Assembly (NCBI GenBank): GCA_050295575.1
Contig: JBNKPX010000005.1
Span: 1-62,864, forward strand
From: Gammaproteobacteria bacterium
GTDB taxonomy: Bacteria; Pseudomonadota; Gammaproteobacteria; GCA-001735895
Length of the DNA: 62,864 bases
Reading direction: 5' to 3'
Of this stretch, positions 5,048 to 55,460 are shown piece after piece. The first letter of the stretch is position 1. Every line of letters starts with the position of its first letter. Below the pieces are notes generated by a model that made no database searches, was not told where the DNA came from, and saw only the letters and a list, made by a program, of their open reading frames with translations. The translations under genes and the position numbers were made by a program.

Positions 5048-5764
5048 TCATTGAGCCTCATCTCGGACTGCCGCATTCCGGTTAGCGTGCAGGAAAGCGC
5101 GCAGATGAAATTGACTTTGCGCATCGTGATAACGCCAGGTTTGCCCCTGCGGACATCGATAGCGCGCCATACAACCATGCTGGTGACAGGCGGCATCTAC
5201 ATTGTGTTCGAGGTAACGGATGCAGACGGGAACGTCATAGCCCGACTCGGTCAATGCATTAACCGGACAGGTATGCAGGCAGGGTTTATTGCTACAACTA
5301 TCACAAACAGATGTCGTCTGATGCGCTTTCAGCATGACACTGGTATCCGGTAATAACAGGGCGAACCGATAAGCGTGCCATAGTCCGTATTGCGGGTGCA
5401 TCATCAAACCCAGTGGAGATTGTTCGAGCGCTTCAGCGCTGCGTGCCCAGCGTTGGAATGGCAGGTAGGGCGGTCCATCGAAGGGGAATATTGTCTCCAG
5501 CCCGAAATGCTCGCATACTCCAGTCGCCACCCGGCGGCTCCATCGATCCAGCGGATGTGGCTGCCCGTCATGATACTCGGCCGCTGCAGAAAAATGTCCC
5601 CACATGTCCGCACCGACATTGCCTACGAGCGCAATCCTCGATGCGGTCAATCCGTATTGCTGCCGCTCATCTTGCGTAATTTCTCCAATTCCACGCAGCG
5701 CCAGTCCGCATTGCGACAGGTAGTCGTTTAACGCTTGCAGGTTCACCTGCCGGGAGTCGCTCAT
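5048..5764 (-). CDS. 4Fe-4S ferredoxin-type iron-sulfur protein
   Basis: Cys cluster CDSCSNKPCLHTCP plus a second Cys-rich stretch CIRYLEHNVDAACHQHGCMARYRCP. Confidence 0.6.
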   Translation of the reverse strand: MSDSRQVNLQALNDYLSQCGLALRGIGEITQDERQQYGLTASRIALVGNVGADMWGHFSAAAEYHDGQPHPLDRWSRRVATGVCEHFGLETIFPFDGPPYLPFQRWARSAEALEQSPLGLMMHPQYGLWHAYRFALLLPDTSVMLKAHQTTSVCDSCSNKPCLHTCPVNALTESGYDVPVCIRYLEHNVDAACHQHGCMARYRCPQGQTWRYHDAQSQFHLRAFLHANRNAAVRDEAQ

Positions 5765-7965: not shown

Positions 7966-8138
7966 ACTTTATTCCGCAAATTTTTTGCTATTTTAGCGGC
8001 GTTTAACAATCAACATTACGCCAGGGACGACCCAGGAATGAACGTTCGCGACCTGGCCCTGGATACACACCCTGGCAGTAACTGGTATCTGATGCTGCTG
8101 AGTAAATCAGGCCCTGGCGAAACCCTGATTTTTATACC

Positions 8139-8212
8139 AGTTATCGAATGATTTATGGTCTATTCTAAGAGTGATAAAGATCATGTCTAAGGGATATGGA
8201 CTGAAAGAATAA
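8139..8212 (+). repeat. Partial third copy of the conserved leader block found upstream of the receptor gene and the giant kinase gene
   Basis: AGTTATCGAATGATTTATGGTCTATTCTAAGAGTGATAAAG...GGACTGAAAGAATAA aligns with 14481-14545 and 20518-20591. Confidence 0.6.
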
Positions 8213-8514
8213 TGTGGGTTAAGGCTCCGCTTGATCAGACAAAGCAATGATCCTGTGAAATATTGCAACTGATGCGCCGGCCTGTTGTTGCTTGCTTTCG
8301 CTTTGGACTCTCGGCTTCATATAGATAGAGAATATGACTACTGGATACAGGCAATACTGGCAGGAAAAGACCTGGCACGGCATAGGCATCGCTCTTATCG
8401 TGCTCGTGCTTTATGTCAGCAGACTCTTTAGCTACCTTCTGTTCCATAGTCTCATCTGCTGGAGCTGTTGCTGGAAGCCGAAGCCTCGGTGTGTCCTTCA
8501 GGAGAGGAATCATC

Positions 8515-11280
8515 GTGAGCGATAGCGACCACCGTCCCCCGGTCCTCGCTGCCGATCAAATCATGGCGGTGGAGGTTTTTTCCCAGATGCTTGCTGCTAC
8601 CGATGCGAGCCAGATGGGAGAGAAACTCACCGAGCAACTGCGTGAACTGACTGGCGCCCGCACCGTCATGGTCATCGCTCATGAGGATGAACTGGACAGG
8701 AATGAGTTGCTGCACGCCTGTCCAGCCCGGCGCAAAACCTTGTTTTCCGCAGCCGATCTCGATCTGCTTTGCTCGCTAGACTACCCGGAAATTTTGACCG
8801 GGCTTGTGAAGGATTTCCCGCAGAATCATCCGTTGCGGGCACTACTGTTAGGCCTGGGCATCGAATCATTGCTGCGCGTCCCGTTAAAAACGGGAAGCCG
8901 TCTGGTCGGTATGTTGTTGTTGCTGGACCTGCCAACAGTGGAACGGATTGATGAGATGAACAGGATAGTCAGTCACCTTTCCCCCGTACTGGTGCTGGCG
9001 CTGAGACCGGAAATTATCGAGTGTAAGGTTTCCGAAAAAGCATTGCTCCACGAGCAGACATTGCTCAACCGTATCATGCTAACCAGCCCGGTGGGTATCG
9101 CGGTGGTAAACCGCGAGGGGCAGATCACCTTCGCCAACCCGCAGGCAGAAAATATCCTCGGCTTGAGTAAGGAAGTTTTGACTCAGCTGAGCTACAACGC
9201 TCCCGAATGGCATACGACAGCCATAGATGGCGGACCTTTTCCAGATGAGGCACAACCATTCAATCGCGTGATGGCAGCACGTCAGGCAGTATTCGATGTC
9301 CAGCACGCAATCACCTGGACGGATGGTCGACGAGTGCTGCTATCGATCAATGGTGCTCCTATTTTTGATGCGCAGGGCGAGATTGAAGCAGTGGTCTTCT
9401 CGATCGAAGACATCACCGAACGCAAGCATGCCGAGGAGACGTTGCAGCGCAGCGAGCATGGTCTGGCCGAAGCGCAGCGCATCGCGCATCTGGGTAGTTG
9501 GGAGCTGGATCTACTTAACAATGTACTGACCTGGTCGGATGAAATATTCCATATTTTTGAGATAGACAAGGAAGAATTCGCTGCTTCCTACGAGGCGTTT
9601 CTTGATGCTATCCACCCGGACGATAGAGAGATGGTCAACCATGCCTATACCGAATCACTCAGCAGCAAAAAGCCCTACAACATCGAGCACCGCCTGTTAA
9701 TGAAAGATGGCCGCATCAAATACGTGCACGAGCAATGCGAAAGCTTTTTTGATGCCGCCGACAAACCGCTGCGTTCAGTGGGTACAGTACAGGACATCAC
9801 TGAGCAGAAGCTGAGAGAGGATGAGCTACGACGCTACCGTGACCACCTGGAAGAGGAGGTACAACAGCGCACCACTGAATTGATGCTGGCGCGTGATGCA
9901 GCGGAAGCCGCCAACAAGGCGAAGAGTACCTTCCTTGCTAATATGAGCCATGAGTTGCGCACCCCACTCAACGCCATCCTCGGTTTCTCGCAACTGATGC
10001 ATAAGGATGGGTCGCTAAGTGCACGGCAGCGTGAAAACCTGGAAATTATCAATAATAGCGGTGATCACCTGTTAAGGCTGATTAACGACGTACTGGAGAT
10101 TGCCAAGATAGAGGCGGGCAAACAGCAACTGGAGGTTACCACCTTTGATCTGTATGAAATGGTACGAGCGGTAAGCGACATGATGAGACTGAAGGCGCAA
10201 CAGAAGGGGCTGCAACTGGTACTGGATCAATCGTCAGCGTTTCCGCGCTTTATCAAGGCTGACGAGGCGCGACTACGGCAGATTCTGGTCAACCTGGTGA
10301 GCAATTCGGTGAAATTTACCGAACAGGGCGGTGTAACCATCCGCCTGCGCAACGAGCACAATGCACGTCACCATCTGCTAATAGAGGTTGAGGATACTGG
10401 GCCAGGGATTAGCCGCATCGATCAGCAGCGCCTGTTCCACCCCTTCGAGCAACTGTCTACAGGCCCCGCTTCGCAGGGGGGAACCGGCCTGGGGCTCGCC
10501 ATCGTGCGCCAGTTCGTGCAACTGATGGAAGGTGAGATCGCCGTTGAAAGTGAACCGGGTAAGGGGTCGCTGTTTCGCGTCAAGTTGCCGATTAATGAGG
10601 CTGATAAGGCGCAGATGATCCACCTGTGCGGTGAAAGGCGTGGAGTATTGGCAGGCCTGGCACCCGGGCAGCCCAGCCGCCGCATTCTGATCGCCGAGGA
10701 TCAGCACGAAAACCAGCTGCTGCTAAGCAAATTGATGACCGACCTCGGCCTGGAGGTTAAGGTCGCGCACAATGGCGAGGAGTGCATTCAGATATTCCAG
10801 CACTGGAAACCAGACCTGATCTGGATGGACCAGCGCATGCCGGTCATGGATGGGGGCGAAGCCACCCGGCGTATTCGCGAACTGCCGGGCGGAGACCAGG
10901 TGAAGATCGTCGCCGTTACTGCCTCAGCCTTAAAAGAGCAGGAGACAACCTTACGTGCATCAGGCATGGATGGCTATGTAAGCAAGCCCTACCGCCTGGA
11001 TGAGATCTACCACAGTCTGGAAAAGCAACTGGGGTTGACATGGGCGTACGCTGAGACAGATAGCGAGCGAGAGGCAACACTGGTTGTACCGCCCAGTGAA
11101 CAGCTATTTGAGCTATATCAGTTAGCGGATACAGGACAGATCTTTGAAATACAGGAGATAGCTTCTCGTCTGCAAGCAGACAATGAAGCTTTTATCCCGT
11201 TTGCCCAAAAGCTACAGAAACTGGCGAAAAGATTTGATATTGAGGGGATAAGCGCTTTTATAAAACAGTATCTAGAATGA
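8515..11280 (+). CDS. Hybrid sensor histidine kinase HK1: GAF-like N-terminus, 2 x PAS, HisKA, HATPase, REC, conserved ~80-aa tail
   Basis: H-box [17 protein letters not shown] (His codon 9949-9951). N/G boxes [25 protein letters not shown]. Receiver [14 protein letters not shown] (Asp codon 10828-10830) and YVSKP. I prefer the GTG at 8515 (AGGAGAGG 6 nt upstream) over the ORF-track start at 8413, which adds a low-complexity extension. Confidence 0.9.
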   Translation: MSDSDHRPPVLAADQIMAVEVFSQMLAATDASQMGEKLTEQLRELTGARTVMVIAHEDELDRNELLHACPARRKTLFSAADLDLLCSLDYPEILTGLVKDFPQNHPLRALLLGLGIESLLRVPLKTGSRLVGMLLLLDLPTVERIDEMNRIVSHLSPVLVLALRPEIIECKVSEKALLHEQTLLNRIMLTSPVGIAVVNREGQITFANPQAENILGLSKEVLTQLSYNAPEWHTTAIDGGPFPDEAQPFNRVMAARQAVFDVQHAITWTDGRRVLLSINGAPIFDAQGEIEAVVFSIEDITERKHAEETLQRSEHGLAEAQRIAHLGSWELDLLNNVLTWSDEIFHIFEIDKEEFAASYEAFLDAIHPDDREMVNHAYTESLSSKKPYNIEHRLLMKDGRIKYVHEQCESFFDAADKPLRSVGTVQDITEQKLREDELRRYRDHLEEEVQQRTTELMLARDAAEAANKAKSTFLANMSHELRTPLNAILGFSQLMHKDGSLSARQRENLEIINNSGDHLLRLINDVLEIAKIEAGKQQLEVTTFDLYEMVRAVSDMMRLKAQQKGLQLVLDQSSAFPRFIKADEARLRQILVNLVSNSVKFTEQGGVTIRLRNEHNARHHLLIEVEDTGPGISRIDQQRLFHPFEQLSTGPASQGGTGLGLAIVRQFVQLMEGEIAVESEPGKGSLFRVKLPINEADKAQMIHLCGERRGVLAGLAPGQPSRRILIAEDQHENQLLLSKLMTDLGLEVKVAHNGEECIQIFQHWKPDLIWMDQRMPVMDGGEATRRIRELPGGDQVKIVAVTASALKEQETTLRASGMDGYVSKPYRLDEIYHSLEKQLGLTWAYAETDSEREATLVVPPSEQLFELYQLADTGQIFEIQEIASRLQADNEAFIPFAQKLQKLAKRFDIEGISAFIKQYLE

Positions 11281-11613
11281 AAATGAAAGTAGAGAAAAGA
11301 TGGTTTTGTGGTTACTGGAGGCGTCACCAGTATCGTTCCAATATTAATTTCCAATCGCAGGGTGTTAGCGCGAATGGGATAGTTGGTCCTGGTGGTCAGA
11401 CAGGTGGATGTAGGCAATTTCCCACCACGCGCTGATCCGGCTTGACGTTGTTGTGGTGAACCGTATGATCGAAGACATAAGCGATCATGATTCCGCTTTG
11501 GCAAGGGCATTGGCTGAGCAAGCCAGGGATCTCCAGTTTGGCTGGATTCTGCAGTTGATTCGTATTAACCATAACTCAATAAGCGACACGGCGAATGCTA
11601 CGGAGAAGCAGAT

Positions 11614-14370
11614 ATGAACCATGCGCGCTTCAATCAGATTCTGATTGTTGACGACAACAGCGGTACTCTTCGGTTGCTGCAGAACCTGCTGACCGAGCAG
11701 GGCTACACTGTGTATCCCGTCCCCAGTGGCGAGCTGGCGCTGGGGTTCGTCCAGTCGAACCTCCCCGACCTCATCTTGTTGGACATCAAAATGCCTGGAA
11801 TGGATGGCTATGAGGTTTGCCGACGACTCAAGGCGGATGAGCGCACCGCTTCCATTCCCATCATTTTTCTCAGTGCCCTGGAGGATAAACAGGACAAGGT
11901 GAAGGGCTTTCAGGCCGGAGGCGTGGACTACATCGCCAAGCCGTTTGAGGCAGAGGAGATGCTGGCCCGGGTGCGCATTCATCTGCGCATGCGAGAACTC
12001 ACCGAAGGATTGGAACAGGAGGTTGGCGCACGTACCGAAGAGTTGATGCTCGCCAATAAACGGCTTGCTGAGGAGATCGCTGAGCGCAGACAGGCCGAGG
12101 AAGAGTTACGCCAGCTCAACAACGATTTTGTCACCCTGCTCGAAAACACAGATGACTTTATCTATTTCAAGGACAGGGACAACCGCTTCCTGTTTTGCAG
12201 CCAGACTCTGGCCGATATCACCGGTCATCGAAGTTGGCGTGACTTGACAGGTAAGGACGACTTCGAGGTGTTCCCTGAGGAAGCTGCGCGTATTTACCGT
12301 GCAGAAGAGCAGCCGATCTTCAGTGAAGGCAAGGTGCTATTGAACAAGGTCGATCCCTATTTCGATGCGCAGGGTGAACGGCGCTGGGTGAATACCAATA
12401 AATGGCCGGTGTTCGACGACAAACAGGCTGTAGTAGGGGTTTTTGGGATCAGCCGAGACATCACCGAGCAAAAACAGGCGGAGGAGGAATTGCGTCGGCT
12501 TACACTCTTCCAGCAGACGATTCTAAACAGCGTTTCTTACAGCATAATAACCACCACTCCTGATGGGATCGTCACCGTCTTCAATCCTGCCGCTGAGCGC
12601 TTGCTGGGTTACACGGCGGATGAAGTGGTTGGCAAACAAACCCCTGCGCTCTGGCACGATGCACAGGAGATCAGGCAACATGCCCTGCGCCTGTCCGAAG
12701 AACTGGGCGAAAAGATCCAGCCTGGACTGGATGTATTTACGGCACGTCCCAAACGCAACCTTCCTGAGGAGCACGAATGGACCGTAATTTGCCGGGATGG
12801 TACTCGAGTGCCGGTGAATCTTTCCGTAACCAAGTTGAGTGATGACGCTGGTCATATCATTGGATTCGTCGGCATGATCTATGACCTCAGCGAGCGCAAG
12901 CAGGCGGAACAGGAGCTGTGGCGTTACAAGGATCAACTGGAAGAAACAGTACAACAACGCACTGCCGAGCTGCAGCTGGCGCGCGATGCTGCTGAAGCCG
13001 CCAACAAGGCTAAGAGCGTCTTTCTCGCCAGCATGAGCCATGAGCTGCGAACCCCACTCAATGCCATCCTCGGCTTCTCGCAACTGATGCGCCAGGATCA
13101 CTCCCTGAATTCCCGCCAACTGGAAAATATGGACATCATCAATAATAGTGGCGGTCACCTGCTCAATCTAATCAATGATGTACTAGAGATCGCCAAGATC
13201 GAGGCGGGCAAACAGCAACTGGATATCGCTATTTTTAACCTGCACGAACTGATAGCTGAGGTGAGCGATATGATGAGGGTGAGGGCTCAACAGAAGGGGG
13301 TGCAACTGGAGCTGGATCAGTCGTCAGAGCTTCCACGTTTAATCTGGGGTGACAAGTCAAGGCTGCGGCAGATTCTGGTCAATCTGGTGAGCAATGCAGT
13401 GAGGTTTACCGAACAGGGCTGTGTAACCATCCGCCTGCGTAGCAGGCACAATGCCCATCACCATCTTTTGATCGAGGTCGAGGATACAGGTCCGGGGATT
13501 AGTAAAAAGGATCAGCGACGTCTGTTCAAGCCTTTCGAGCAACTGTCAGCAGGCTCTACTTCTCCGGGGGGAACTGGACTCGGACTCGCCATCGTACGCC
13601 AGTTCGTGCAACTGATGAAAGGTGAGATTGGCGTTGAAAGTGAGCCGGGCAAGGGGGCTCTGTTCCGCGTCGAGCTGCCGCTGAATAAAGCCGATAAGGC
13701 TGAAGTGGATCGTTTTAGCAGTATGGGGCAGGGAAAGGTTAGCGGCCTGGCCCCGGGACAGCCCCTTTATCGTATCCTCATTGCCGAAGACCAGCGCGAA
13801 AACCAGCTGTTGCTGAGCAAACTGATGACCGACCTTGGGCTTGGGGTGAAGGTGGCGGAGAACGGGGAAAAGTGTGTGCAACTGTTCCAGCAGTGGCAGC
13901 CGCACTTGATCTGGATGGACTGGCGCATGCCACTGATGGACGGTGAGGAAGCGACTCGGCAGATCCGAAAATTGCCGCACGGGGATCAGGTGAAGATCGT
14001 CGCCGTTACCGCCTCTGCCTTAAAAGAGCAGGAAGCAGCGTTACGCGCATCAGGCATGGACGACTACATCAGCAAACCCTACCGCCTGGATGAGATCTAC
14101 CACAGCTTGGAAAAACAGCTGGGATTGAGGTGGGAATACGCTAAGGCAGAAAGCGAGAGCGAGGCAGTTATGGTCACACCGTCCAGCGAACAGTTGCAGG
14201 AGTTGTATCAGTTAGCCGATGTAGGGCAGATTTTTGAAATACAGGAGATAGCCTCTCGCCTGCAGGAAGAGGACGAGGCTTACATCCCATTTGCCCGGCA
14301 GCTCTTGAAACTGGCGACAGGGTTTGATATTGAGGGGATAAGCGCTTTTATAAAACCATATTTAAGGTGA
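11614..14370 (+). CDS. Hybrid sensor histidine kinase HK2: N-terminal REC, 2 x PAS, HisKA, HATPase, second REC, conserved tail
   Basis: N-terminal receiver ILIVDDN...[13 protein letters not shown]...DYIAKPF. H-box [12 protein letters not shown] (His codon 13039-13041). The C-terminal ~1.49 kb is nearly the same as in HK1/HK3/HK4. Confidence 0.92.
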
Positions 14371-14795
14371 TAGAACAGGTAGTAAATGGAACTAGATTCT
14401 GGCCCTTTAAAAATATTGCATGAATTGAATTTGTAGGAGCAACTGACGGATAGTGTGTTACCGAAGCCCTATTTTTTACGAGTTATTGAATGATTTATGG
14501 CCTATTCTATGAGTGATAAAGGTTAAGTCTTGAGGATATAGACGCAAATGCTCTATGAAGCAGTGAGTTACCCTCTAATACGAGCGGTCAATTGCGGAAT
14601 CCAGGACTATACCTCCCAGTTGTAAAGGATGAATCTACTGCGCAGCTTTTATCCGGCCCGGCGTAGTGAGACCTCGGTAAAATGTCTTTGTGTAATAGGA
14701 TATTACTATATGGTTTGACCGTCAGTGAATCTAACTCTTTGATTCTCTAAGAGGTAATGGAGCATATTGATGGATGTATATTGGAGGACTAATCA
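14371..14795 (+). promoter_or_regulatory. Conserved ~0.4-kb leader, copy 1 (paralogous to 20414-20816)
   Basis: Aligns with 20414-20816 over most of its length, including the final GGAGGACTAATCAATGTT (versus GGAGAACTAATCAATGTT), that is RBS plus start codon. Confidence 0.65.
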
Positions 14796-17234
14796 ATGTT
14801 GACGCTAGTTTTTACTTCCTGTTTCCACTTGCGCGTACTTCCTGATAGGTGGATAGCGATGAAAAGGGATATTTTTTCAGGCCTTCCTGTTCGAGTTGCT
14901 GTCAAGATGGCGCTGGTGCCAGGCCTGGTGCTTCTGCAGTCTGTTATGGCTAATGAAGTTCATGCCGCTGCAGAGGCCGAGTTTGCGAATGAGCTGGCCG
15001 ATATGGATATAGGTGAACTGGTGAAAGTCAGGGTTTCTCCCTTCGTTGTTTCCACTAGCCAGGATAAAGGCTATCGCGCGTCGAACTCCATATCTGGTTC
15101 CCGCTTCGATGCCCCGATTCGTGACCTGCCTTTCGCCATACAGGCCTTTACCGAGTCGTTCATCGAAGATCAGAAGCCGGCGAACATCTTTGATGTCGCA
15201 CGCTACTCACCAGGCGTCACCTATCGCAGCAACGACTTCAACGAGGGCAATGCCAATCTTGCTATCCGCGGCTTCGCTGTTAGTGCTACACCCGGTAATG
15301 TCCAGATATTGCGCGACGGTTTTCACGGCCCGTCGATCTTTGACTTTACCAATATCGCGCGCGTGGAAGTGGTCAAGGGGCCTGCCTCGTTTCTGTACGG
15401 TCAGGTCGCTCCCGGCGGCATCGTCAACGTCATTACCAGAGATCCTCAGTCCCAATATGCTGCCTCTGCTGATGCCAGCTATGGTTCATACGACGAATAC
15501 CGGCTGGATGCCGACGTAACCGGACCGGCTTCAGAAACACTGTTCTACAGGCTCTCGGCCTCCTATGCTGAGGACATGCATTACTGGGATCCCTATGATG
15601 CGCACTCGACAGTCGTAGCCCCATCTCTGCTATGGCAGCCCAATGATCGCCTGAGTGTTTCGCTAAAATATGAAAATTTCAGCAAGGTAGAAACACCGCA
15701 ACTTATGCAGCTACCTGGCTACGGTGGCCAGAGTGGCGTGGTGCCGACTGCATCCGATCCCAACCGTCTGGGGGAGTTGCCCGATGTGCCGGATACCTGG
15801 AACAGCATGTCCTATGCTGACTTCCGCAATAGCGACACAGAGAGCCTGAATACCTCGCTGGACTTCAAGGCAGACGATCACTGGAACCTACGAGTTGGTT
15901 ACGCCCACCAGAAATACGAAGTTGATGCGCTTTTTTCCGGCAACTTCGGCATGGCCAATAACGCAACCACTCTACAGGGCCGGCGTGTCAGAGGGCAGAC
16001 CTACACCAACTGGGGTGACATATACGAGGCCGAGGCCGTCGGCAAATACGAATTTGGCCCCACCAGCCTGCGTCTGCTCCTCGGTGTACAGTACGTCGAC
16101 CGCCGATTCGATTCCTGGGCCGGTCAGGCCCCTAACGATCCGGCGCTTGGCAGCGATCCGACTGCATCGCCGTTTCCGCTGTGGGATCTGAGCGATCCCT
16201 CCAGCTGGGATCGCACAGGCACATTTCCACGCTCAGCACTTACCGAGAACGCATATGACCGCAGAGTCGATTACACCGACAAATCGATATACGGCGGCAG
16301 CACCTTCGGTTTTTTCGATGATCGTCTGCTACTTCTCACCGGCTGGCGCCAGACATCGACGGAAAGCCAGATTACTGACAATCTGACTAGCCTGAGCCAA
16401 CCCCGAATCACTGCGAGTGCGGTCACGCCACAATACGGCGTGCTGTACAAACTCACCCCTGCTCTCTCGGCATATGCCTCCTATTCAGAGTCATTCGTTC
16501 CCGGTTCACAAATCCTCGATAACCCTGATGGCTCGACCTCAGCTGCCAGGCCGACCTACGGGCAGGGTTACGATATCGGCGTCAAAGCAGATCTACTTGG
16601 TGGCCGTCTATCCGGTACGCTTACCCTCTTTGATATCCGCAACCGGAATATCGTCAATGATCTCGCTCACACAGACGCCTTTGGTTCGGTGGTGATCTAT
16701 AACGTGCAGAGCGGTGAGCAGCGTTCCCGCGGCGTCGAACTGGATGCCACGGCCACACTGACCGACAACTGGCAACTCTACTTTTCCTATAGCTATATGG
16801 ACGCACGGATTACCGAGTTCAGCGGCAACGATGCGGCTGTTCTTGCACAGGATCCCGTCACTCTGGATGCCGCAGGGCAGGCAAATTACAGGAATGTAAG
16901 CCTGCTGCACAACGCGCCCTTGCAAATGAGCTCGCCACATATGGCCAACCTGTGGACGCGCTATGACTTCAAGAAAGGAGGGCTTGACGGCCTTTATGTC
17001 GGTGGCGGTGCCAATTATGTTTACGACCAGACGATTCTGCCGGGTGGCCCTGACTCAACACATCAGACCTATACGCTGCTCAATGCGATGCTTGGCTATT
17101 CCTGGGCCAGGCACGAACAGCGCATGACTGTGGGCCTCATGGGGAAAAATCTTAGCAACGAACACTACCGGCCCTCGCAAAGCACTCGCAGCCGTCCGCG
17201 TGAGTTTCTCCTTACCTTTTCGGCAAAGTTTTGA
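14796..17234 (+). CDS. TonB-dependent outer-membrane receptor
   Basis: Plug-domain-like N-terminus (VSTSQDKGYRASNSISGSRFDAPIRDLPFAIQAF...VEVVKGPASFLYGQVAPGGIVNVITR), a long beta-barrel region and a terminal aromatic residue (FSAKF). Start is ambiguous: 14796 shares the RBS/ATG context of the duplicated leader, while 14859 (MKRDIF...) and 14907 give more conventional signal peptides. Confidence 0.9.
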   Translation: MLTLVFTSCFHLRVLPDRWIAMKRDIFSGLPVRVAVKMALVPGLVLLQSVMANEVHAAAEAEFANELADMDIGELVKVRVSPFVVSTSQDKGYRASNSISGSRFDAPIRDLPFAIQAFTESFIEDQKPANIFDVARYSPGVTYRSNDFNEGNANLAIRGFAVSATPGNVQILRDGFHGPSIFDFTNIARVEVVKGPASFLYGQVAPGGIVNVITRDPQSQYAASADASYGSYDEYRLDADVTGPASETLFYRLSASYAEDMHYWDPYDAHSTVVAPSLLWQPNDRLSVSLKYENFSKVETPQLMQLPGYGGQSGVVPTASDPNRLGELPDVPDTWNSMSYADFRNSDTESLNTSLDFKADDHWNLRVGYAHQKYEVDALFSGNFGMANNATTLQGRRVRGQTYTNWGDIYEAEAVGKYEFGPTSLRLLLGVQYVDRRFDSWAGQAPNDPALGSDPTASPFPLWDLSDPSSWDRTGTFPRSALTENAYDRRVDYTDKSIYGGSTFGFFDDRLLLLTGWRQTSTESQITDNLTSLSQPRITASAVTPQYGVLYKLTPALSAYASYSESFVPGSQILDNPDGSTSAARPTYGQGYDIGVKADLLGGRLSGTLTLFDIRNRNIVNDLAHTDAFGSVVIYNVQSGEQRSRGVELDATATLTDNWQLYFSYSYMDARITEFSGNDAAVLAQDPVTLDAAGQANYRNVSLLHNAPLQMSSPHMANLWTRYDFKKGGLDGLYVGGGANYVYDQTILPGGPDSTHQTYTLLNAMLGYSWARHEQRMTVGLMGKNLSNEHYRPSQSTRSRPREFLLTFSAKF

Positions 17235-17247
17235 TTCTGGATCAGGC

Positions 17248-17844
17248 ATGAAAACGCAGTTTAGATACCGTCGTCCGCTACGAGAGGCTGTGCCAGGTGT
17301 AATTTTTTTGTTTTACATATTGTTTATGCCGAGCCATGTTGCGAGTGCGGAGTTGGTGGTGGATAATCCGTACAGGGTCAAGGCTGCTTTTCTGCGTAAT
17401 TTCGCTCACTATGTGACCTGGCCAGACGAGGCATTCTCCGGTAGCGATTCGTCCTGGTGCATCGGCATTCTTGGGAAGGACCCCTTTGGCGAGATTCTGG
17501 AAAAGACGTTCGAGGGCCGTAGCGAACAGGGCCGGATGTTTGAAATATTCCGCGCAGATACGCCGGATGAGTTGCCACCATGTCAGATCATCTTTATTAC
17601 ATACAGGGATGCGGCGCAGCGACGTGCGGTTCTTGATAAATTGAAAAACAGGCCGGTACTGACGGTCGGTGATGCGCCGGAATTCCTGCGCGAAGGTGGT
17701 GTAATACGGTTCCAGGTCGGGGACAGGGTGTCCATGAGTATCAATCTCGACCAGGCCCGTGCTGCCGCACTGATGATACAGACCAAAATGCTGGAGGTAT
17801 CCAGCGATATTCTGGAACACGGTGAAATCCGCCACGTGAGATGA
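17248..17844 (+). CDS. YfiR family (DUF4154) periplasmic protein
   Basis: Signal peptide then YRVKAAFLRNFAHYVTWPDEAF, the signature start of DUF4154/YfiR proteins. Two Cys (SWCIG, PPCQI). Lies 13 nt after the receptor stop, and its stop is 1 nt before the HK3 ATG. Confidence 0.8.
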   Translation: MKTQFRYRRPLREAVPGVIFLFYILFMPSHVASAELVVDNPYRVKAAFLRNFAHYVTWPDEAFSGSDSSWCIGILGKDPFGEILEKTFEGRSEQGRMFEIFRADTPDELPPCQIIFITYRDAAQRRAVLDKLKNRPVLTVGDAPEFLREGGVIRFQVGDRVSMSINLDQARAAALMIQTKMLEVSSDILEHGEIRHVR

Positions 17845-17845
17845 G

Positions 17846-20413
17846 ATGTCTATCCAGCTGAACATACATAACAGACTAGCACTCGTGCTTTGGGGCACAG
17901 CTTTGCTGGCATTTGTGATGGTCGGCACTGGGGTAGTACTGTTTCAGAGTTTTACCCTGGAGCATCGTACCCGCCAGATTATGGAGCCTTATGCGCAACT
18001 GGTCTCCGTTGGTACGGACGCGGCTGTGGCTTTTGAGGATCCCGTCCGTGCCCAGGAAATTCTCGACACCCTGCGCGCAAATCTGCAGATACGGGAAGCA
18101 GTCATTTATCTGGATGGGGGGCGGATGCTGGCCCGTTTCAGCCGCCTGCCAAATGCCCCCCCGGCACCTTCACTTACCAGGCCGGATGGTCTCTATCTGG
18201 ATCATAACACGGCAGAACTGCTGCAAGCGCTCCCTGGAGGAGGGCGTTTGCGACTTAGCATGGGGCTCGAACAACTCAGCCAGCAAACGCATCAGGCCCT
18301 GTGGGTATTCGGCACGGGCGTAGTCGTTCTGCTTCTGGTCACGGTTGCCCAACTGCTGGTTTTGCGGCGCACGCTCACGCGGCCTATTGCAAACCTGACA
18401 CAGGCGAGTGAACTTGTTCGAGCCAGTGCGAGCTATACGCATCGTGTTCCCGCAACCGGCGCAGATGAAGTGGCTCAGCTAGGCAAAAACTTCAACGCCA
18501 TGATGGATGTTATCCAGCAACGAGAAGATGACTTGCGCAAGCTTACGATCTTTCAGCGCACGATTCTGAACAATGTGGCCTACGGCATCATCTCTGCAAC
18601 ACCTGAAGGAACCGTTACCAGCTTTAATCCTGCTGCTGAGCATTTGCTGGGTTACACAGCAGATGAGATAGTCGGTAAGCAGACGCCCGGTTACTGGCAC
18701 GATCCGGAAGAAGTTGTGCGCTATGCCCAACAGTTGACCGATGAACTGGGCGAAACGATTCAGGAGGGGTTTGACGTGTTTGCTGCCCGCCCGCGGCGCA
18801 ATCTTACCGAGGAGCGAGAATGGACCTTCATTCGCAAGGATGGAAAGCGAGTGCCGGTGAATTTATCCGTGACTGCGCTGTGGGATGAAGGGGGAGAAAT
18901 CACGGGATTCGTTGGTCTGGTTTACGACCTCAGCGAACGTAAGCAAGCGGAACAGGAACTTTTGCGCTACAGAGAGCAGCTTGAGGAAACTGTCCAGCAA
19001 CGTACCCATGAATTGCGCCTGGCACGCGATGCGGCGGACTCGGCAAACAAGGCTAAGAGCGCTTTCCTGGCCAACATGAGCCACGAATTACGCACCCCGC
19101 TCAACGCCATCCTGGGCTTTTCCCAACTGGTGCGCCAGGATCAGTCCCTGACTAGCAGCCAGCGGGAAAACCTGGACATTATCAACAACAGTGGCGATCA
19201 CCTGCTTAAGCTGATCAATGACGTACTGGAAATCGCCAAGATAGAGGCGGGTAAGCTGCAACTGGAGGTCGCCACCTTTGATTTGCACAAACTGGTGCGT
19301 GAGGTGAGTGACATGATGAGTCTGCGGGCGCAACAGAAGGGACTGCAACTGGAACTGGATCAGTCGTCAGCTTTTCCGCGCTTAATCAAGGGCGATGAGG
19401 CGCGGCTACGACAGATCCTGGTTAATCTGGTGAGCAATGCGGTGAAGTTCACCGAACAGGGCGGTGTGACCATGCGCCTGCGTAGCAGACACAATGCCCA
19501 TCACCATCTACTGATCGAGGTCGAGGATACAGGCCCAGGGATTAGCAAAAAGGATCAGCAGCGTCTGTTCAAGCCTTTCGAGCAACTGTCTGCAGGCGCT
19601 GCTTCGCAGGGGGGCACCGGTCTGGGACTTGCTATCGTGCACCAGTTCGTGCAACTGATGGCAGGAAATGTATCCGTTGAAAGCAAACCGGGCCAGGGCT
19701 CGCTGTTTCGTGTCGATCTGCCACTGAATGAGCCCGATGAGGCGGAGATGATCCGCCTGATTGATGAAAGTCACGGAGCAGTGGTCGGCCTCGCGCGGGG
19801 GCAGGGCTCCCGCCGCATCCTCATCGCCGAGGATCAGAGGGATAATCAAATCCTGCTCACCAGGTTGATGACCGACCTCGGCCTGGAGGTAAAGGTGGCG
19901 CAGAACGGGGAAGAGTGCATACAGATATTCCAGAGCTGGAAACCAGACCTGATCTGGATGGATCAACGCATGCCAGTCATGGACGGAGTCGAGGCTACCC
20001 GTCGCATTCGCGAATTGCCGGGTGGGAAACAGGTGAAGGTCGTCGCCGTTACCGCCTCCGCCTTAAAAGATCAGGAGAAAACCTTACGCACATCAGGTAT
20101 GGACGACTACGTCAGTAAACCCTACCGCTTCGATGAGATCTTCCACAGCCTGGAAAAGCAGCTGGGATTGACCCTGGTATATGCTGAGTCAGAAAGCGAG
20201 CACGAGTCTGCTCTGGTCACACCACCCAGCGAACAGCTGCGTGAGTTGTATCAGTTAGCCGATGTAGGACAGATCTTTGAAATAAAGGAGATAGCCTCTC
20301 GTCTGCAGGCAGAGAATGAGACTTACATTCCGTTTGCCCGGCAGCTACTGAAACTGGCCAAAGGGTTTGATATTGAGGGGATAAGCGCTTTTATAAAACA
20401 GTATTTAAAGTGA
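17846..20413 (+). CDS. Hybrid sensor histidine kinase HK3: TM, CHASE8-like periplasmic domain, TM, HAMP, PAS, HisKA, HATPase, REC, conserved tail
   Basis: TM1 [23 protein letters not shown]. Periplasmic [43 protein letters not shown] resembles the YfiN/TpbB-type CHASE8 sensor. TM2 [23 protein letters not shown] is followed by HAMP. H-box [12 protein letters not shown] (His codon 19082-19084). Confidence 0.9.
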
Positions 20414-20816
20414 AAGCAGAAAATTGAAGTCAACTCTGATTTCTTAAACGGTGTTCATTTATTGAATTTGTAAGTGCAACAGGCGGATAGTTTGTTATCG
20501 AAGCCCTATTTTTTACGAGTTATCGATTAATTTATGGTCTATTCTTATGAGTGATAAAGGTTAAGTCTTAGGCATAGGGCTGAAAGAATAAAGAAGTTAA
20601 ACGATAAAAATTGAGATATGAAAATAAAGAATATATCTCCCAGTTGAAAAGGATGAACCCACTGCAGCTTTTAGCCGCCCCGACGTTGTTAGACCTCGAT
20701 AAAAAATGACTTTTAATAAAGTATAGCTATTTGATTTGACAGCCAGGGAATCGGTCTCTTTGATTATCGCAGAGGTAACAGACCATCTTGATTGCTGCAT
20801 TTCGGAGAACTAATCA
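20414..20816 (+). promoter_or_regulatory. Conserved ~0.4-kb leader, copy 2 (paralogous to 14371-14795)
   Basis: Same blocks as copy 1 (ATTGAATTTGTA..., GAAGCCCTATTTTTTACGAGTTAT..., CTCCCAGTTGAAAAGGATGAA..., GGAGAACTAATCAATG). Confidence 0.65.
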
Positions 20817-27068
<6,252 letters not shown>

Positions 27069-27234
27069 TAACTGACGTAAGGCTATGGGGTACTTTATCA
27101 AATAAACTAGTTCATTCTCACCAATTAGCTGAGCTCGTTAACGCTACAGGAATTTGAAAAAATCCATGCACAACTGCGGATTCCAGCCTTAAAGTGTAGG
27201 AATTCTGGGGCAGCTGCCTGACTCAATTGGCCTG

Positions 27235-27392
27235 TATTATTTAAGGAAGCTCTGAATAATTCATGCATGAATTCTCAGAGCGAGAAAAACGAAAAATGCG
27301 ATTTTCGCTTTTCCCTAAAAAATCAGACACTTGCAGTCATTGATTTTGGCTGCACATCCCTGTGCCGCAGGAACCTCTGAAATAATCATAGG
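27235..27392. repeat. ~155-bp hairpin-rich intergenic element, copy 2
   Basis: Aligns with 4265-4430. Contains the 16-bp palindrome AATTCATGCATGAATT, the GAAAAACGAAAA/TTTTCGCTTTTC hairpin and GCACATCCCTGTGCCGCAGGAACCTCTGAA. Confidence 0.6.
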
Positions 27393-27812
27393 TTACTTAA
27401 GTCTTTTCCTGATCCCTGAAATAATGCGCCCCAGTAACGGAATATGCTCATAAAGCATGGCACCCACATCAAAATAATCGCGGTGGAAATATATCTGCTC
27501 ATCAAATTTTAAATGACTAATGCCATCGACATGAATGATTCTGGATTTATTCAGGCGAGGATGCTGGAAGTGCATAGTCCAGTGTATATAAGCTTCTTGC
27601 TCCTGTTCTGTAATCTGGTGGATTTCAAAATTACAGTGTATTAAATCCTGCATCATATTTTTGAAATACTGATGCAGCGCTTGTATGCCCTGTATATGGT
27701 GAACAGGGTCAATAAACTCGATGTCTGAGCGATAAATCTGGCCCAGACCCGCCAGCTCGGAGTTGTTTAGCTGTTGGTAAAACTGTTTGAATTTTTCCAG
27801 TGTGGGGTTCAT
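27393..27812 (-). CDS. SnoaL-like / NTF2-fold protein
   Basis: Size and pattern (FYQQLNNSELAGLGQIYRSDIEFIDPVH...) are typical of the small NTF2-like protein encoded after photolyase genes. Start is 2 nt after the phr stop. Confidence 0.6.
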   Translation of the reverse strand: MNPTLEKFKQFYQQLNNSELAGLGQIYRSDIEFIDPVHHIQGIQALHQYFKNMMQDLIHCNFEIHQITEQEQEAYIHWTMHFQHPRLNKSRIIHVDGISHLKFDEQIYFHRDYFDVGAMLYEHIPLLGRIISGIRKRLK

Positions 27813-48644: not shown

Positions 48645-48700
48645 CTGTAACACAATCTTAATCTTTCCATAATATTTCCGTCACATTTGAAGACTAAAGT
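48645..48700 (+). promoter_or_regulatory. Pho-box-like promoter of the phn operon
   Basis: Four 7-mers phased every 11 bp: CTGTAAC(48645) acaa TCTTAAT cttt CCATAAT attt CCGTCAC(48678). The outer two match CTGTCAT 5/7. TAAAGT, a -10-like hexamer, lies 10 nt downstream at 48695-48700. This supports the phnC start at 48729. Confidence 0.5.
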
Positions 48701-48728
48701 CTGCCCCATCAATTTTTCGGAAACTGAA

Positions 48729-49571
48729 ATGTCTGAAGCCATTAAAATTTCATCACTGTCCAAGACCTTTAGCAAGAAGATTGCGCTTGATGATATATCT
48801 ATACAGATAGCTGAAGGCGAAATTGTAGCTCTAATCGGTCCCAGTGGATCAGGCAAGTCAACACTGTTGCGTCACATTGCAGGACTTGAAGCTTCTGACA
48901 GAAATTTTAGCACTGAAATTATTGTAGATGGTTCACCAGTACAGAAAAATGGAAGGCTTGCAAAAGGTGCCAGAAAGGCTCGCGTTAAAATCGGACTTAT
49001 ATTTCAGCAGTTTAATTTAATCAATCGCCTGAATGTACTTACCAATGTATTGATTGGTTGTCTGGGTAGCATTCCTGCATGGCGTGGCACCTTAGGTCTT
49101 TTCACTGAAGAAGAAAAGATGAGAGCGTTAAAGGCACTTGATCGTGTCGGATTGAAGGATATTGCTTTTCAGCGAGCTTCTACGTTATCTGGTGGACAGC
49201 AACAACGCGTAGCTATTGCACGTAGTTTAATGCAGCAGGCTAATGTAATACTGGCCGACGAGCCAATCGCATCTCTGGATCCAAAATCAGCCAAAACTGT
49301 CATGCGATATCTACGTGATATCAATAAACACGACGGCAAGTCAGTGGTCGTTACCCTTCATCAGGTGGATTATGCGCGTAAATATTGTAAGCGTGTCATA
49401 GCGCTTGTGGATGGAAAAATTGCTTTTGATGGAAAGGCTAAAGAGCTAACCGAAAAGGTTTTGGAAAAGCTCTATGGCACAGCAATGTCAGATGACGATG
49501 AAGAAGTCATTGTCGAGCAACAAAACCCAGCCTACCCAACAGCAAACTTAATAGCTGGTCTGTCAGGCTAA
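48729..49571 (+). CDS. phnC: Phosphonate ABC transporter ATP-binding protein
   Basis: Walker [10 protein letters not shown], signature [13 protein letters not shown], Walker B ILADEP. First gene of the phn cluster. The ATG at 48729 is preferred over 48687. Confidence 0.9.
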
Positions 49572-49598
49572 CAATTATTTAATCAACTGGAGAACTTT

Positions 49599-50609
49599 AT
49601 GTTTCGTAAATTTATCAAGCCCGCCATAGCCGCGGCTGCTATCACCGCCTCAGTGATGATGCCGAGTGCTTCATTCGCAGACAGCAAAACCTTGAACTTC
49701 GGTATTATATCAACCGAATCATCTCAAAATCTGCGCGCAATCTGGAACCCTTTCCTGGAAGATATGGGTAAAAAACTGGGTGTAAAGGTTAAAGCGTTTT
49801 TCGCACCTGACTATGCCGGTATCATCGAAGGTATGCGTTTTAACAAGGTTGACGTTGCCTGGTACGGAAATAAATCTGCTATGGAAGCGGTTGATCGTGC
49901 AGGCGGCGAAATCTTTGCACAGACTGTAGATGTTGAAGGTAATCCTGGTTACTGGTCATTGCTGGTTACACACAAGGATAGCAATATCAATTCAGTAGAC
50001 GATATGCTGAAGCACTCAAAGGAGCTGGTTTTTGGTAATGGTGATCCTAATTCAACCTCTGGCTTCCTGGTGCCTTCATACTATATTTTTGCCAGGAACA
50101 ATGTTGATCCGAAGAAGGCGTTCAAGCGCGTACTGAATTCAAACCATCAGACTAATCTGCTGGCCGCTGCTAGCAAGCAGGTAGATGTAGCCACCAACAA
50201 TACTGAAAACTTCCGACGTCTTGAAGAAACCCATCCTGATAAGGTTAAGAATATCAAGGTTATCTGGAAATCTCCTTTGATTCCTTCTGACCCTATCGTA
50301 TGGCGCAAGAATATGGACGAAGGTCTCAAGCACAAGATTTTTGATTTTTTCATGACTTACGGTACTAAAAGTGCAAAGGAAAAAGAAGTTCTGGCTGCTT
50401 TGCAATGGGCTCCATTTAGCGCATCCAGCAACGATCAGCTGATTCCTATCCGTCAGCTGGTACTGTTCAAAAAGCGTGTAAAGCTAGAAGCAGATAGCAA
50501 ATATTCTGCCAGCGAAAGGAAAGCAAAGCTTGCTGAAATCGATGATCAATTAAACATGCTAAAGCGTCGCTCTGCAGCACTAAAGGCCTTCGCAGCTAAA
50601 AATTCATAA
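49599..50609 (+). CDS. phnD: Phosphonate ABC transporter periplasmic substrate-binding protein
   Basis: Signal peptide, then LNFGIISTESSQNL ... YGNKSAMEA ... GDPNSTSGFLVP, as in PhnD. Confidence 0.9.
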   Translation: MFRKFIKPAIAAAAITASVMMPSASFADSKTLNFGIISTESSQNLRAIWNPFLEDMGKKLGVKVKAFFAPDYAGIIEGMRFNKVDVAWYGNKSAMEAVDRAGGEIFAQTVDVEGNPGYWSLLVTHKDSNINSVDDMLKHSKELVFGNGDPNSTSGFLVPSYYIFARNNVDPKKAFKRVLNSNHQTNLLAAASKQVDVATNNTENFRRLEETHPDKVKNIKVIWKSPLIPSDPIVWRKNMDEGLKHKIFDFFMTYGTKSAKEKEVLAALQWAPFSASSNDQLIPIRQLVLFKKRVKLEADSKYSASERKAKLAEIDDQLNMLKRRSAALKAFAAKNS

Positions 50610-50637
50610 AGTCATTTGTTTGTCCCTGACGGATATT

Positions 50638-50659
50638 CCGGGTCGTTTTTACGACCCGG
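50638..50659 (+). terminator. Intra-operon hairpin after phnD (possible attenuator or mRNA stabiliser)
   Basis: CCGGGTCGT-tttt-ACGACCCGG followed by TCATTTT, located in the 135-nt phnD-phnE gap. Confidence 0.5.
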
Positions 50660-50744
50660 TCATTTTAGTCATTTCATCAAAGGCTGCGAACTGGCGGACT
50701 TTAATTAAATGAAAACCCAACTACGAATTCATTAGGCCAATATC

Positions 50745-51533
50745 ATGAGTGAAGTACTCGAATTTAAAAAACCACAGCAACGTAGTTCAATGCTTAACCT
50801 GATCGCATGGGCTGGGGTTTTAATGTTGCTGGGCTGGTCCTGGGAGGGGGCAGAAATGAATCCCTGGGCGCTGGTTGAATACAGCGGCAATATGCTGGAG
50901 TTGAGTGCTGATTTTTTTCCACCTAATCTGCATGACTGGGAGCTGTATGTTCAGGAAATGATTGTCACGATCCAGATTGCAATCTGGGGAACGGTACTGG
51001 CGATTATCGCAGCAGTACCCTTTGGGATTATGTCTTCAGAAAATCTCATGCCGTGGTGGATCTCCCAGCCCACAAGACGACTGATGGATTCAGCCCGAGC
51101 CATCAATGAAATGGTATTCGCGATGCTGTTTGTCGTCGCCGTGGGACTGGGACCTTTTGCAGGTGTGATGGCATTGTTCGTACACACCACAGGTATTCTG
51201 GCGAAGCTGTTTTCAGAAGCCGTTGAAGCCATAGAGCCTGGCCCCGTTGAAGGTGTGCGTGCAACCGGTGCTACCGCTATACAGGAAATTATTTATGGGG
51301 TCATTCCGCAGGTATTGCCGTTATGGATTTCATTCTCGCTATATCGTTTCGAGTCTAATGTTCGATCTGCCACTGTACTGGGTATGGTGGGTGGCGGTGG
51401 TATCGGCGTTATCCTGTGGGAGAGTATTCGCGGCTTTATGTTTCAGGAAACCTGTACCGTGATACTGATCATTATCGTATCGGTAACCTTGCTCGACCTG
51501 CTGTCACAACAGTTACGCAAAATGGTGATTTAA
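50745..51533 (+). CDS. phnE: Phosphonate ABC transporter permease
   Basis: Multi-TM protein with the conserved [16 protein letters not shown] permease loop. Position is between phnD and phnG. Confidence 0.9.
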
Positions 51534-51977
51534 ATGAATACTCAACAACGACAACAACTGCTCTCGGTACTGGCCAAATCATCTCTGCAGGATATCAAGC
51601 AGTGTTGGGATCACTCTCTGGATGACTACGAATATAGCACGCTACGACAGCCACAGACGGGTATGGTGATGGCGGTAGCCAGAACTGAAGCCAAAGGCGA
51701 ACCCTTTAATCTGGGTGAGATTAGCGTCACACGCTGTGCGTTGAGGCTGAGCAGTGGCGAAACTGGTATTGGTTATGTGATGGGTAGTAATAAGGAACAT
51801 GCGCTGCACGTTGCGATGCTGGATGCTGTTGCGCAACAACACAATCAGTACACAGAGATACATACTCAGGTTATTCAGCCGCTACAGCAAAAGCTATTAC
51901 AGACACATCAGGCTCAACAGCAAAAAACAGATACAAGTCGGGTGGATTTTTTCACTATGGTTAGAGGAGAAGATTAA
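51534..51977 (+). CDS. phnG: C-P lyase core complex subunit PhnG
   Basis: LSVLAKS..., GMVMAVARTEAKGEPFNLGEISVTRCALRL and GYVMGSNKEHA parallel E. coli PhnG blocks. Abuts the phnE stop. Confidence 0.88.
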   Translation: MNTQQRQQLLSVLAKSSLQDIKQCWDHSLDDYEYSTLRQPQTGMVMAVARTEAKGEPFNLGEISVTRCALRLSSGETGIGYVMGSNKEHALHVAMLDAVAQQHNQYTEIHTQVIQPLQQKLLQTHQAQQQKTDTSRVDFFTMVRGED

Positions 51978-52582: not shown

Positions 52583-52726
52583 TGGGAACCTCCAAAAATT
52601 GTCTTTTTCCGCGATTGCGGCGTCAGCTCCGTACTCGAATCCTCATGTATGCTTTTATACATTGCGGTTCTCCGTGCGGTGCTTCCTTGCACTCACAAAA
52701 AAATCCTAATTTTTAGAGGTACCCAA

Positions 52727-55456: not shown

Positions 55457-55460
55457 AGAC

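Follow-up and report, generated by a model that had tools for sequence, protein, structure and literature searches.

We analysed a stretch of 62,864 nucleotides from a Gammaproteobacteria bacterium (contig JBNKPX010000005.1 of assembly GCA_050295575.1, positions 1 to 62,864 of the forward strand, hereafter the window), which carries between positions 8515 and 27068 an array of four hybrid histidine kinase genes, named here HK1 to HK4. An earlier note on this DNA had described the array as four unrelated input regions placed on one near-identical output module of about 1.5 kb. The open reading frames (ORFs) and the Pfam domains bore out the gene coordinates and the sensor architectures given there, with the reservation that the GAF match of HK1 is weak and lies below the Pfam cut-off. 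The four genes are the following.

8515 to 11280, plus strand: HK1, cytoplasmic hybrid histidine kinase; weak GAF-like domain, PAS and PAS_3, then the module (Pfam)
11614 to 14370, plus strand: HK2, hybrid histidine kinase; N-terminal REC (receiver) domain, two PAS domains, then the module (Pfam)
17846 to 20413, plus strand: HK3, membrane hybrid kinase; CHASE8, HAMP and PAS, then the module (Pfam)
20817 to 27068, plus strand: HK4, hybrid kinase; Pkinase-like domain, AAA_16/STAND, TPR, GAF and PAS, then the module (Pfam)

An alternative, longer ORF of HK1 starts at 8413, and the public annotation starts the gene at 8515 (921 amino acids). Pfam placed HisKA, HATPase_c and Response_reg domains at the end of all four proteins alike, and the H-box SHELRTPLN, the REC motif LIWMD.RMP.MDG and the SKPY motif were intact in each of them. 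HK1 to HK4 are intact hybrid histidine kinases, each with a HisKA-type transmitter and a receiver. Their heads differ in domain architecture, as had been claimed, but they are not unrelated throughout, since the last PAS domain is common to HK2 and HK3 (65% amino acid identity, about 69% nucleotide identity).

The common C-terminal module covers about 495 amino acids and consists of an S-helix, the HisKA dimerisation and histidine phosphotransfer (DHp) domain, the HATPase catalytic (CA) domain, the REC domain and a tail of 85 amino acids. Its copy in HK4 begins at 25560, at a register offset of 6,634 nucleotides from HK3, and the other three copies are as follows.

9793 to 11280, plus strand: module copy 1, in HK1; S-helix, HisKA, HATPase_c, REC and tail
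12883 to 14370, plus strand: module copy 2, in HK2; the most divergent copy, basal in the tree
18926 to 20413, plus strand: module copy 3, in HK3; placed by in-register alignment

From their starts at 9793, 12883, 18926 and 25560, the four copies aligned in register and without gaps, and four gap-free copies of 1.5 kb with 72-92% nucleotide identity are far beyond chance. Comparison with the HK3 module showed amino acid identities of 91.5% for HK4, 80.6% for HK1 and 77.6% for HK2, while the nucleotide identity was 0.92 for HK3/HK4 and 0.77-0.80 for all other pairs. The same module is thus present in all four genes, but near-identity, which had been claimed for the whole set, is limited to HK3/HK4. 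Two exact matches singled out earlier were found again, namely a 65-nucleotide run at 19724 and 26358 and a block of 63 amino acids that is identical in HK3 and HK4. Identity among the four kinases ranged from 76% to 96% for the REC domain, that of HK2 being the most diverged (76-83%), and from 76% to 85% for the tail; helix alpha-1 of the REC domain and the tail were nearly alike in all four. The NCBIfam models that scored best on the module were TorS, ArcB, BarA and LuxQ, all below their cut-offs. The module family comprised 2,453 proteins at E<=1e-100 with many sensor types, so the arrangement of one module under many heads is a trait of this large family and is not peculiar to the locus.

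Age of the paralogues and exchange between HK3 and HK4

Relatives of the window were sought by a scan of species-representative genomes, and the metagenome-assembled genomes (MAGs) A44, C13, H24 and H43 were compared with it. The closest relatives were Gammaproteobacteria MAGs near Thiohalomonadaceae, Sedimenticolaceae and Thiodiazotropha, and the nearest of them was A44 (JBNKUM010000040.1). The gene order in A44 is HK1 orthologue, spacer, TonB receptor gene, YfiR-like gene and HK3 orthologue, without HK2 between the HK1 orthologue and the TonB receptor gene and without HK4 after the HK3 orthologue. The positional orthologue of HK1 (A44 contig L001, 2478-5450) is 84% identical in amino acids from residue 196 on, the TonB receptor is 93% identical, and full-length orthologues of HK3 were found in A44 (91%), C13 and H43. 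An HK2-type gene made of REC, PAS and the module, minus one PAS domain, is located about 20 kb off in A44 (contig L025, 9116-11509), where it directly follows another hybrid kinase gene. No orthologue of HK4 turned up in the sister MAGs.

We then compared the synonymous divergence (dS, simple Nei-Gojobori estimate) of the module copies with that of genes shared by the window and A44. The orthologue values were lowest for the TonB receptor (0.22) and the sensor part of HK3 (0.24), and both the YfiR-like gene and the HK3 module gave 0.35. Those of the module paralogues were 1.02 for HK1/HK2, 0.79 for HK1/HK3, 0.77 for HK1/HK4, 0.84 for HK2/HK3, 0.88 for HK2/HK4 and 0.25 for HK3/HK4, and the five pairs other than HK3/HK4 (0.77-1.02) therefore stand at three to four times the orthologue baseline of 0.22-0.35. 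Paralogues compared across genomes gave 0.65-0.95, which is not above the values found within the genome. In a neighbour-joining (NJ) distance tree, the modules of the window, A44, C13, H43 and H24 formed one clade, inside which they fell into HK3-type and HK1-type orthologue groups and not into genome groups; HK2 was basal, and HK4 was the sister of HK3 within the HK3 group. The grouping by orthologue rather than by genome argues against a general concerted evolution of the modules. Together, the high paralogue dS, the lack of closeness within the genome and the orthologue groups of the tree indicate that HK1, HK2 and HK3 are old paralogues, older than the split from the nearest sequenced species, and that they are not being homogenised.

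Synonymous divergence was also compared along the genes. The last PAS domain shared by HK2 and HK3 had a dS of 1.65, against 0.84 in the module. In the first 42 codons of the module (the S-helix), dS was saturated for HK3/HK4, HK1/HK3 and HK2/HK3 and was 1.65 for HK1/HK2, while from the H-box onward it was 0.72-1.0. To judge from these values, the ancestry of the module is younger than that of the homologous sequence adjoining it. Equal divergence of output and sensor parts, which the earlier note had set as the outcome that would speak against modular exchange, was not observed for HK2/HK3, where the module, the PAS domain and the S-helix differ as given above. The lower dS of the module thus supports a modular exchange, though not a recent one.

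The pair HK3/HK4 behaved differently. A three-segment likelihood fit (twice the log-likelihood difference, 2*deltaLL = 93) delimited the following tract.

19064 to 20299, plus strand: exchange tract, HK3 side; three-segment likelihood fit, from the H-box to most of the tail
25698 to 26933, plus strand: exchange tract, HK4 side; HK3 coordinates plus the register offset of 6,634 nucleotides

The tract is 1,236 nucleotides long, begins at the H-box and spans the DHp, CA and REC domains and most of the tail, at 94.7% identity, while identity is 67% in the segment 5' of it and 86% in the segment 3' of it. In a sliding window, HK3/HK4 identity was 67-83% in the first 50-70 codons or so, rose to 94-98% over about 1.2 kb and dropped to 87-89% over the last 40-60 codons or so, and the comparison of HK3 with its A44 orthologue was flat (0.87-0.95). 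The dS of the tract was 0.159 between HK3 and HK4 and 0.347 between HK3 and its A44 orthologue over the same columns. HK3 and HK4 agreed against A44 at 103 sites of the tract, HK3 agreed with A44 at 40 and HK4 agreed with A44 at 22; the 103 sites place the exchange later than the species split. A Sawyer-type permutation of polymorphic sites gave P=0.0035-0.005 for HK3/HK4, and with global correction no other pair passed the test. Gene conversion should leave two paralogues of one genome more alike than either is to its orthologue, and this was found in the HK3/HK4 tract and in none of the five other pairs. On these site patterns, the HK3/HK4 exchange tract is real and post-dates the species split. 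The earlier proposal, in which the output is kept uniform by a recent duplication or by gene conversion, holds for this tract and does not extend to the five other pairs, given their dS, their orthologue-wise place in the tree and their non-significant permutation results.

Operon leaders, rearrangement breakpoints and the origin of HK4

Between the kinase genes, and upstream of HK1, the array includes two further genes, copies of a leader sequence and a relic.

14796 to 17234, plus strand: TonB-dependent receptor (Pfam Plug, TonB_dep_Rec_b-barrel); opens the operon that ends in HK3
17200 to 17844, plus strand: YfiR-like periplasmic protein (DUF4154; Pfam PF13689; NCBIfam NF053591, 127.1 bits against a cut-off of 125)
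14371 to 14795, plus strand: leader or spacer 'IGR-T', which precedes the TonB-receptor operon; orthologous to A44 contig L001 5451-5864 (78.5% identity)
20414 to 20816, plus strand: second full copy of IGR-T, after HK3 and up to the ATG of HK4; 75.5% identical to 14371-14795 and 80.5% to the A44 copy
8120 to 8212, plus strand: partial third copy, of the IGR-T core, upstream of HK1; 86% identical to A44 contig L001 5544-5636
11426 to 11613, plus strand: relic in the HK1-HK2 spacer; blastn identity of 72-78% to A44 contig L025 8943-9119

The spacers that follow HK2 and HK3 (about 400 nucleotides) stay about 75% identical past the stop codon up to the next ATG, and IGR-T could not be aligned by sequence downstream of the HK3 orthologues of A44, C13 and H43. 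Some of the duplicated blocks would have brought their downstream non-coding sequence along, and since they carried it, the leader that belongs to the TonB-receptor/YfiR-like/HK3 operon now also precedes HK4 as a copy. An origin of this second leader by unequal crossover between the HK2 and HK3 modules was unsupported, the 3' part of the HK3 module not being specifically HK2-like. A non-coding core of about 75-93 nucleotides (…TTATGGTCTATTCTATGAGTGATAAAG…) is located upstream of HK1, of the TonB-receptor operon and of HK4, at 8120-8212, about 14464-14556 and about 20507-20600 of the window and at L001 5544-5636 and L025 5432-5592 of A44, and it was kept even in a decayed relic of A44. A motif scan of the genome collection found the core only in the kinase cluster and, in the H24 MAG, on two tiny contigs; its occurrence only in the A44 kinase cluster and on these two contigs ruled out a dispersed repeat. 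The core may act as an RNA element, or as a promoter or operator that these genes have in common, and the copied leader may place HK4 under the same regulation as the TonB operon. No Rfam family matched the leader in a scan of 8000-27500, and a promoter and terminator scan of 11.2-21 kb gave fewer matches than shuffled sequence, none of them in the leader copies.

In A44 the HK2 orthologue is preceded by a hybrid kinase gene, to whose 3' end the relic at 11426-11613 is homologous, and about 70 nucleotides just 3' of HK4 (about 27097-27165) are 81% identical to the flank just 3' of that same A44 gene. We read both as footprints of relocation between two kinase loci. At 5259-5592 of its contig L025, A44 has a decayed tail remnant followed by a leader relic, the remnant being isolated (5259-5405) and 47% identical in amino acids over 49 residues; the pair is, by its decayed state, evidence of gene death in the family. 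Where the gene order of the window departs from that of A44, the departure starts and stops at module copies, which leads us to infer that the module is the homology at which the rearrangements occur. The module of the HK1 orthologue of A44 was also considered as an HK2-derived deletion product, and this was ruled out because the two form the lowest-identity pair (0.767 at the nucleotide level).

HK4 differs in origin between its two ends. Its head (residues 1 to about 1300) is 66-84% identical to proteins of Sideroxyarcus and of a gammaproteobacterium from a saline biofilm, its matches in many other phyla reach 55-73%, and past residue 1300 the identity to these relatives falls to 28-46%. The L086/L087 proteins, which are 66-84% identical to the HK4 head, are non-hybrid and end after the HATPase domain without REC or tail; all head relatives inspected end in this way or have other C-terminal ends, and none has REC plus tail. 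The head is 55-84% identical to HstK-like giant sensors (Ser/Thr-kinase-like domain, AAA_16/STAND, GAF and histidine kinase) across many phyla, but unlike those inspected, HK4 carries the local GAF-PAS and module instead. By this break in identity, HK4 is a chimera, in which a pseudokinase/STAND head of wide conservation is joined to a local C-terminus. The conservation of the head across phyla suggests horizontal spread or strong constraint.

The N-terminal kinase-like domain of HK4 (20817-21700) has HKDLKPEH, has GLG in place of DFG and has no GxGxxG Gly-rich loop. An active Hanks-type Ser/Thr kinase would have, besides the catalytic HRD...N motif, the DFG aspartate and the Gly-rich loop, the latter two missing here, and the domain is probably a pseudokinase scaffold. 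The only Rfam match in 8000-27500 lay inside the HK4 coding sequence (23673-23738, minus strand) and was a sub-threshold fluoride riboswitch, which scored 22.1 bits (E 0.028) where the gathering score is 34 and is most likely a chance match.

The YfiR-like gene is directly 5' of HK3, whose CHASE8 domain scored 53.1 bits against a cut-off of 27. In control of the YfiBNR/HmsCDE type, YfiR represses the CHASE8-type periplasmic domain of YfiN. The locus is like these systems in that a CHASE8-type sensor adjoins, immediately 3', a gene of the YfiR family (DUF4154), and unlike YfiBNR in that the output is a hybrid kinase and not a GGDEF cyclase and that the outer-membrane component is a TonB-dependent receptor and not the lipoprotein YfiB; YfiB and a GGDEF output are both absent. 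The CHASE8 domain of HK3 likely has the YfiR-like protein, which NCBIfam files under the TOL_0243 family, as its periplasmic partner. Two other assemblies, compared with the window over 22.6 kb and 14.5 kb, showed 9 and 13 base differences, and all of these fell in 16022-16271, a patch of 250 nucleotides in the TonB receptor gene, which suggests a hypervariable and perhaps surface-exposed segment. The window also carries, at 48687-58013, a cluster for phosphonate uptake and C-P lyase (ABC transporter with phosphonate-binding protein, PhnG/H/I/J, ATPases, an amidohydrolase and DUF1045), which has no connection with the kinases.

Tail domain, wiring and origin of the array

The tail occupies 20156-20410 in HK3 (its last 85 residues, with a four-helix part of about 62 amino acids) and the equivalent ends of HK1, HK2 and HK4, and it matched no Pfam or NCBIfam model. 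A word-indexed search with the tail gave one protein only, and a HMMER profile search of 1.84 billion representative proteins, used instead, gave 1,186 matches (representative protein clusters) at E<=0.001. The tail ended within 15 residues of the C-terminus in all 150 of the best-scoring matches, and each of the 45 long tail-bearing matches scanned was a HisKA-HATPase-REC hybrid, with varied sensor domains. A few tail-bearing kinases had two tails in tandem, and closely related kinases of Thiohalomonadaceae and Sedimenticolaceae were without the tail. The tail is a so far undescribed domain at the C-terminus of one subfamily of hybrid kinases.

The AlphaFold2 model of the tail (alignment of 43 sequences) showed four short helices with a predicted local distance difference test (pLDDT) above 90. 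The top Foldseek matches of this model in the PDB were the histidine phosphotransfer (HPt) domains of RcsD (1sr2) and HptB (7c1i), at non-significant E values of 0.38-5, and comparison of the tail with PDB sequences gave chance helical matches only. No histidine was conserved among the 43 tails, and neither Pfam nor NCBIfam found an Hpt domain in the kinases or in the tail. Alignment by hhalign with the HPt domains of RcsD, ArcB, BarA, EvgS and TorS of E. coli gave a probability of 1% (P 0.056), and the tail as an HPt domain was rejected; a relationship to HPt domains is kept as no more than a lead. Like ArcB, BarA, TorS, EvgS and RcsD, the four kinases have a helical domain after REC at the extreme C-terminus, but unlike the HPt domains of those proteins it measures about 62 amino acids, has four short helices and lacks a conserved histidine. 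A C-terminal HPt domain with the HxxKG histidine, which marks the unorthodox or tripartite kinases, was not found in HK1 to HK4. It is a doubtful idea that the tail could be related to HPt domains, though without the histidine, and serve as a docking site that brings in a phosphotransfer partner of its own; if true, this would explain why REC and tail travel as one cassette and would mean that the four sensors are wired to one output.

The proteins HK1 to HK4 contain no HPt domain, and the scan of window ORFs found no gene for an HPt or a stand-alone REC protein among those it covered. Each kinase would autophosphorylate on the H-box histidine and pass the phosphoryl group to the aspartate of its own REC domain and from there to a separate HPt protein, which each would require. 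The four REC and tail ends would most likely be directed at one and the same partner, or at a few, a common partner being likely because of their REC identity (76-96%) and tail identity (76-85%). The convergence of the four kinases on one HPt/response-regulator partner, as the earlier note had predicted, is plausible on this similarity. The kinases are in this respect like LuxN, LuxQ and CqsS of Vibrio, which feed LuxU, and like the HptB network of P. aeruginosa, where several hybrid kinases with different inputs have no HPt domain of their own. The genes of those networks are scattered over the genome and code for REC domains with far less resemblance to each other, whereas the kinases described here are clustered; the likeness does not suffice to count the four kinases among such networks.

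A different wiring is possible though unlikely, in which the four kinases feed different partners or each other and form separate pathways or a cascade instead of a many-to-one funnel; HK1 or another kinase might, for example, phosphorylate the N-terminal REC domain of HK2. This extra REC domain, by which HK2 may sit downstream of another kinase, speaks for such insulation, as does the REC domain of its module, the most diverged of the four at 76-83%. The HK2-type gene overlaps the stop codon of another hybrid kinase gene in A44 (L025, 6846-9119 and 9116-11509) and in H24 (L003, 4363-6669 and 6666-8618), the overlapped kinases being only 44-48% identical; an operon of this kind is typical of kinase-to-kinase wiring, and the overlapping pair suggests it here. 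Capra and Laub reportedly found that few specificity residues suffice to insulate paralogous two-component pathways. Against insulation stands the near-identity of REC helix alpha-1 and of the tail in all four kinases, and the known shared-HPt networks (LuxN/LuxQ/CqsS and HptB) run at much lower REC similarity than is seen here.

As to the origin of the array, we consider it probable that duplication and domain shuffling expanded a set of orphan hybrid kinases within this clade and in one physical cluster, with HK4 as a chimera and a later exchange between HK3 and HK4. The transmitter-receiver module of about 1.5 kb would be the conserved unit joined to different sensor heads, and the DHp-CA-REC-tail part of HK4 would have been overwritten by that of HK3, or copied from it, over 1.24 kb after the species split, the presumed direction of this transfer and the order of the rearrangements being tentative. 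The marks of a lineage-specific expansion were all found, namely cores that are monophyletic in the NJ tree, upstream domains that differ in Pfam, and a chimeric HK4. Several points weigh against this account: the Nei-Gojobori estimate of dS is a simple one and approaches saturation at values near 1, the module tree is a distance tree without bootstrap support, and orthologous modules are more diverged than their own sensors (0.35 against 0.24 for HK3, 0.69 against 0.51 for HK1 and 0.76 against 0.48 for HK2), which hints at more exchange between paralogues than the permutation test detects. This faster divergence of the modules is also what an ongoing concerted evolution would produce, with repeated gene conversion keeping all four modules uniform and matched to one partner, and the reality of the HK3/HK4 tract, the module dS below that of the adjoining PAS domain and S-helix (0.84 against 1.65 or saturated) and local HK2/HK3 identity peaks of 0.87-0.91 at alignment columns 380-400 agree with it. 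We hold it to be improbable, since five of the six pairs have a dS three to four times the species-split baseline, paralogues of one genome are no closer than those of different genomes, the tree groups by orthologue, and only HK3/HK4 is significant after global correction. That the array or the HK3/HK4 identity was produced by a chimeric or collapsed short-read metagenome assembly over a repeat is hardly credible, even though the source is a MAG, one related assembly breaks within the locus (contig L082 begins in the TonB receptor gene) and the tiny H24 contigs carry the leader core. The window and two other assemblies share the gene order, each of these two gives the same 110 HK3/HK4 mismatches when compared with the window modules, the assemblies differ only in the TonB receptor gene, the longest confirmed run of HK3/HK4 identity is 65 nucleotides, and the four ORFs and their motifs are intact; the HK3 protein is also identical on five public contigs (MAGs of one project). 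The array is not an assembly artefact, as three independent assemblies of the same population agree on it.

An expansion by duplication and domain shuffling has precedents. Alm, Huang and Arkin (2006; PMC1630713) described how histidine kinases expand within single lineages while their upstream domains are shuffled, a process to which hybrids are especially prone, and the 'type 1b' hybrids of Desulfovibrio are an example (PMC1630713). As in those expansions (PMC1630713), the kinase cores of the window are recent paralogues that form one lineage-restricted clade under differing sensors, and as orphans the kinases have no response regulator gene next to them. Unlike in those expansions (PMC1630713), the copies are adjacent, the duplicated blocks include a non-coding leader, one pair has a post-split exchange tract, and the breakpoints relative to the sister species fall at module ends. 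Literature searches found nothing specific on gene conversion in hybrid kinases, on pseudo-HPt domains or on a YfiR-like protein combined with a TonB receptor and a kinase.

The locus is a tidy example of a known process, lineage-specific expansion with domain shuffling; it reveals no new signalling principle, and the many-to-one wiring is offered as a hypothesis. Its additions are modest, and comprise the post-split HK3/HK4 exchange, the module-bounded breakpoints with a co-duplicated leader, and the uncatalogued tail domain. The tail is a widespread domain of hybrid kinases that is not in the family databases and would be a cheap target for structure and interaction work. For the building of sensors, the locus provides a clean and datable case in which a kinase-receiver cassette was reused under varied heads, with breakpoints at the cassette ends and a grafted head of foreign ancestry.

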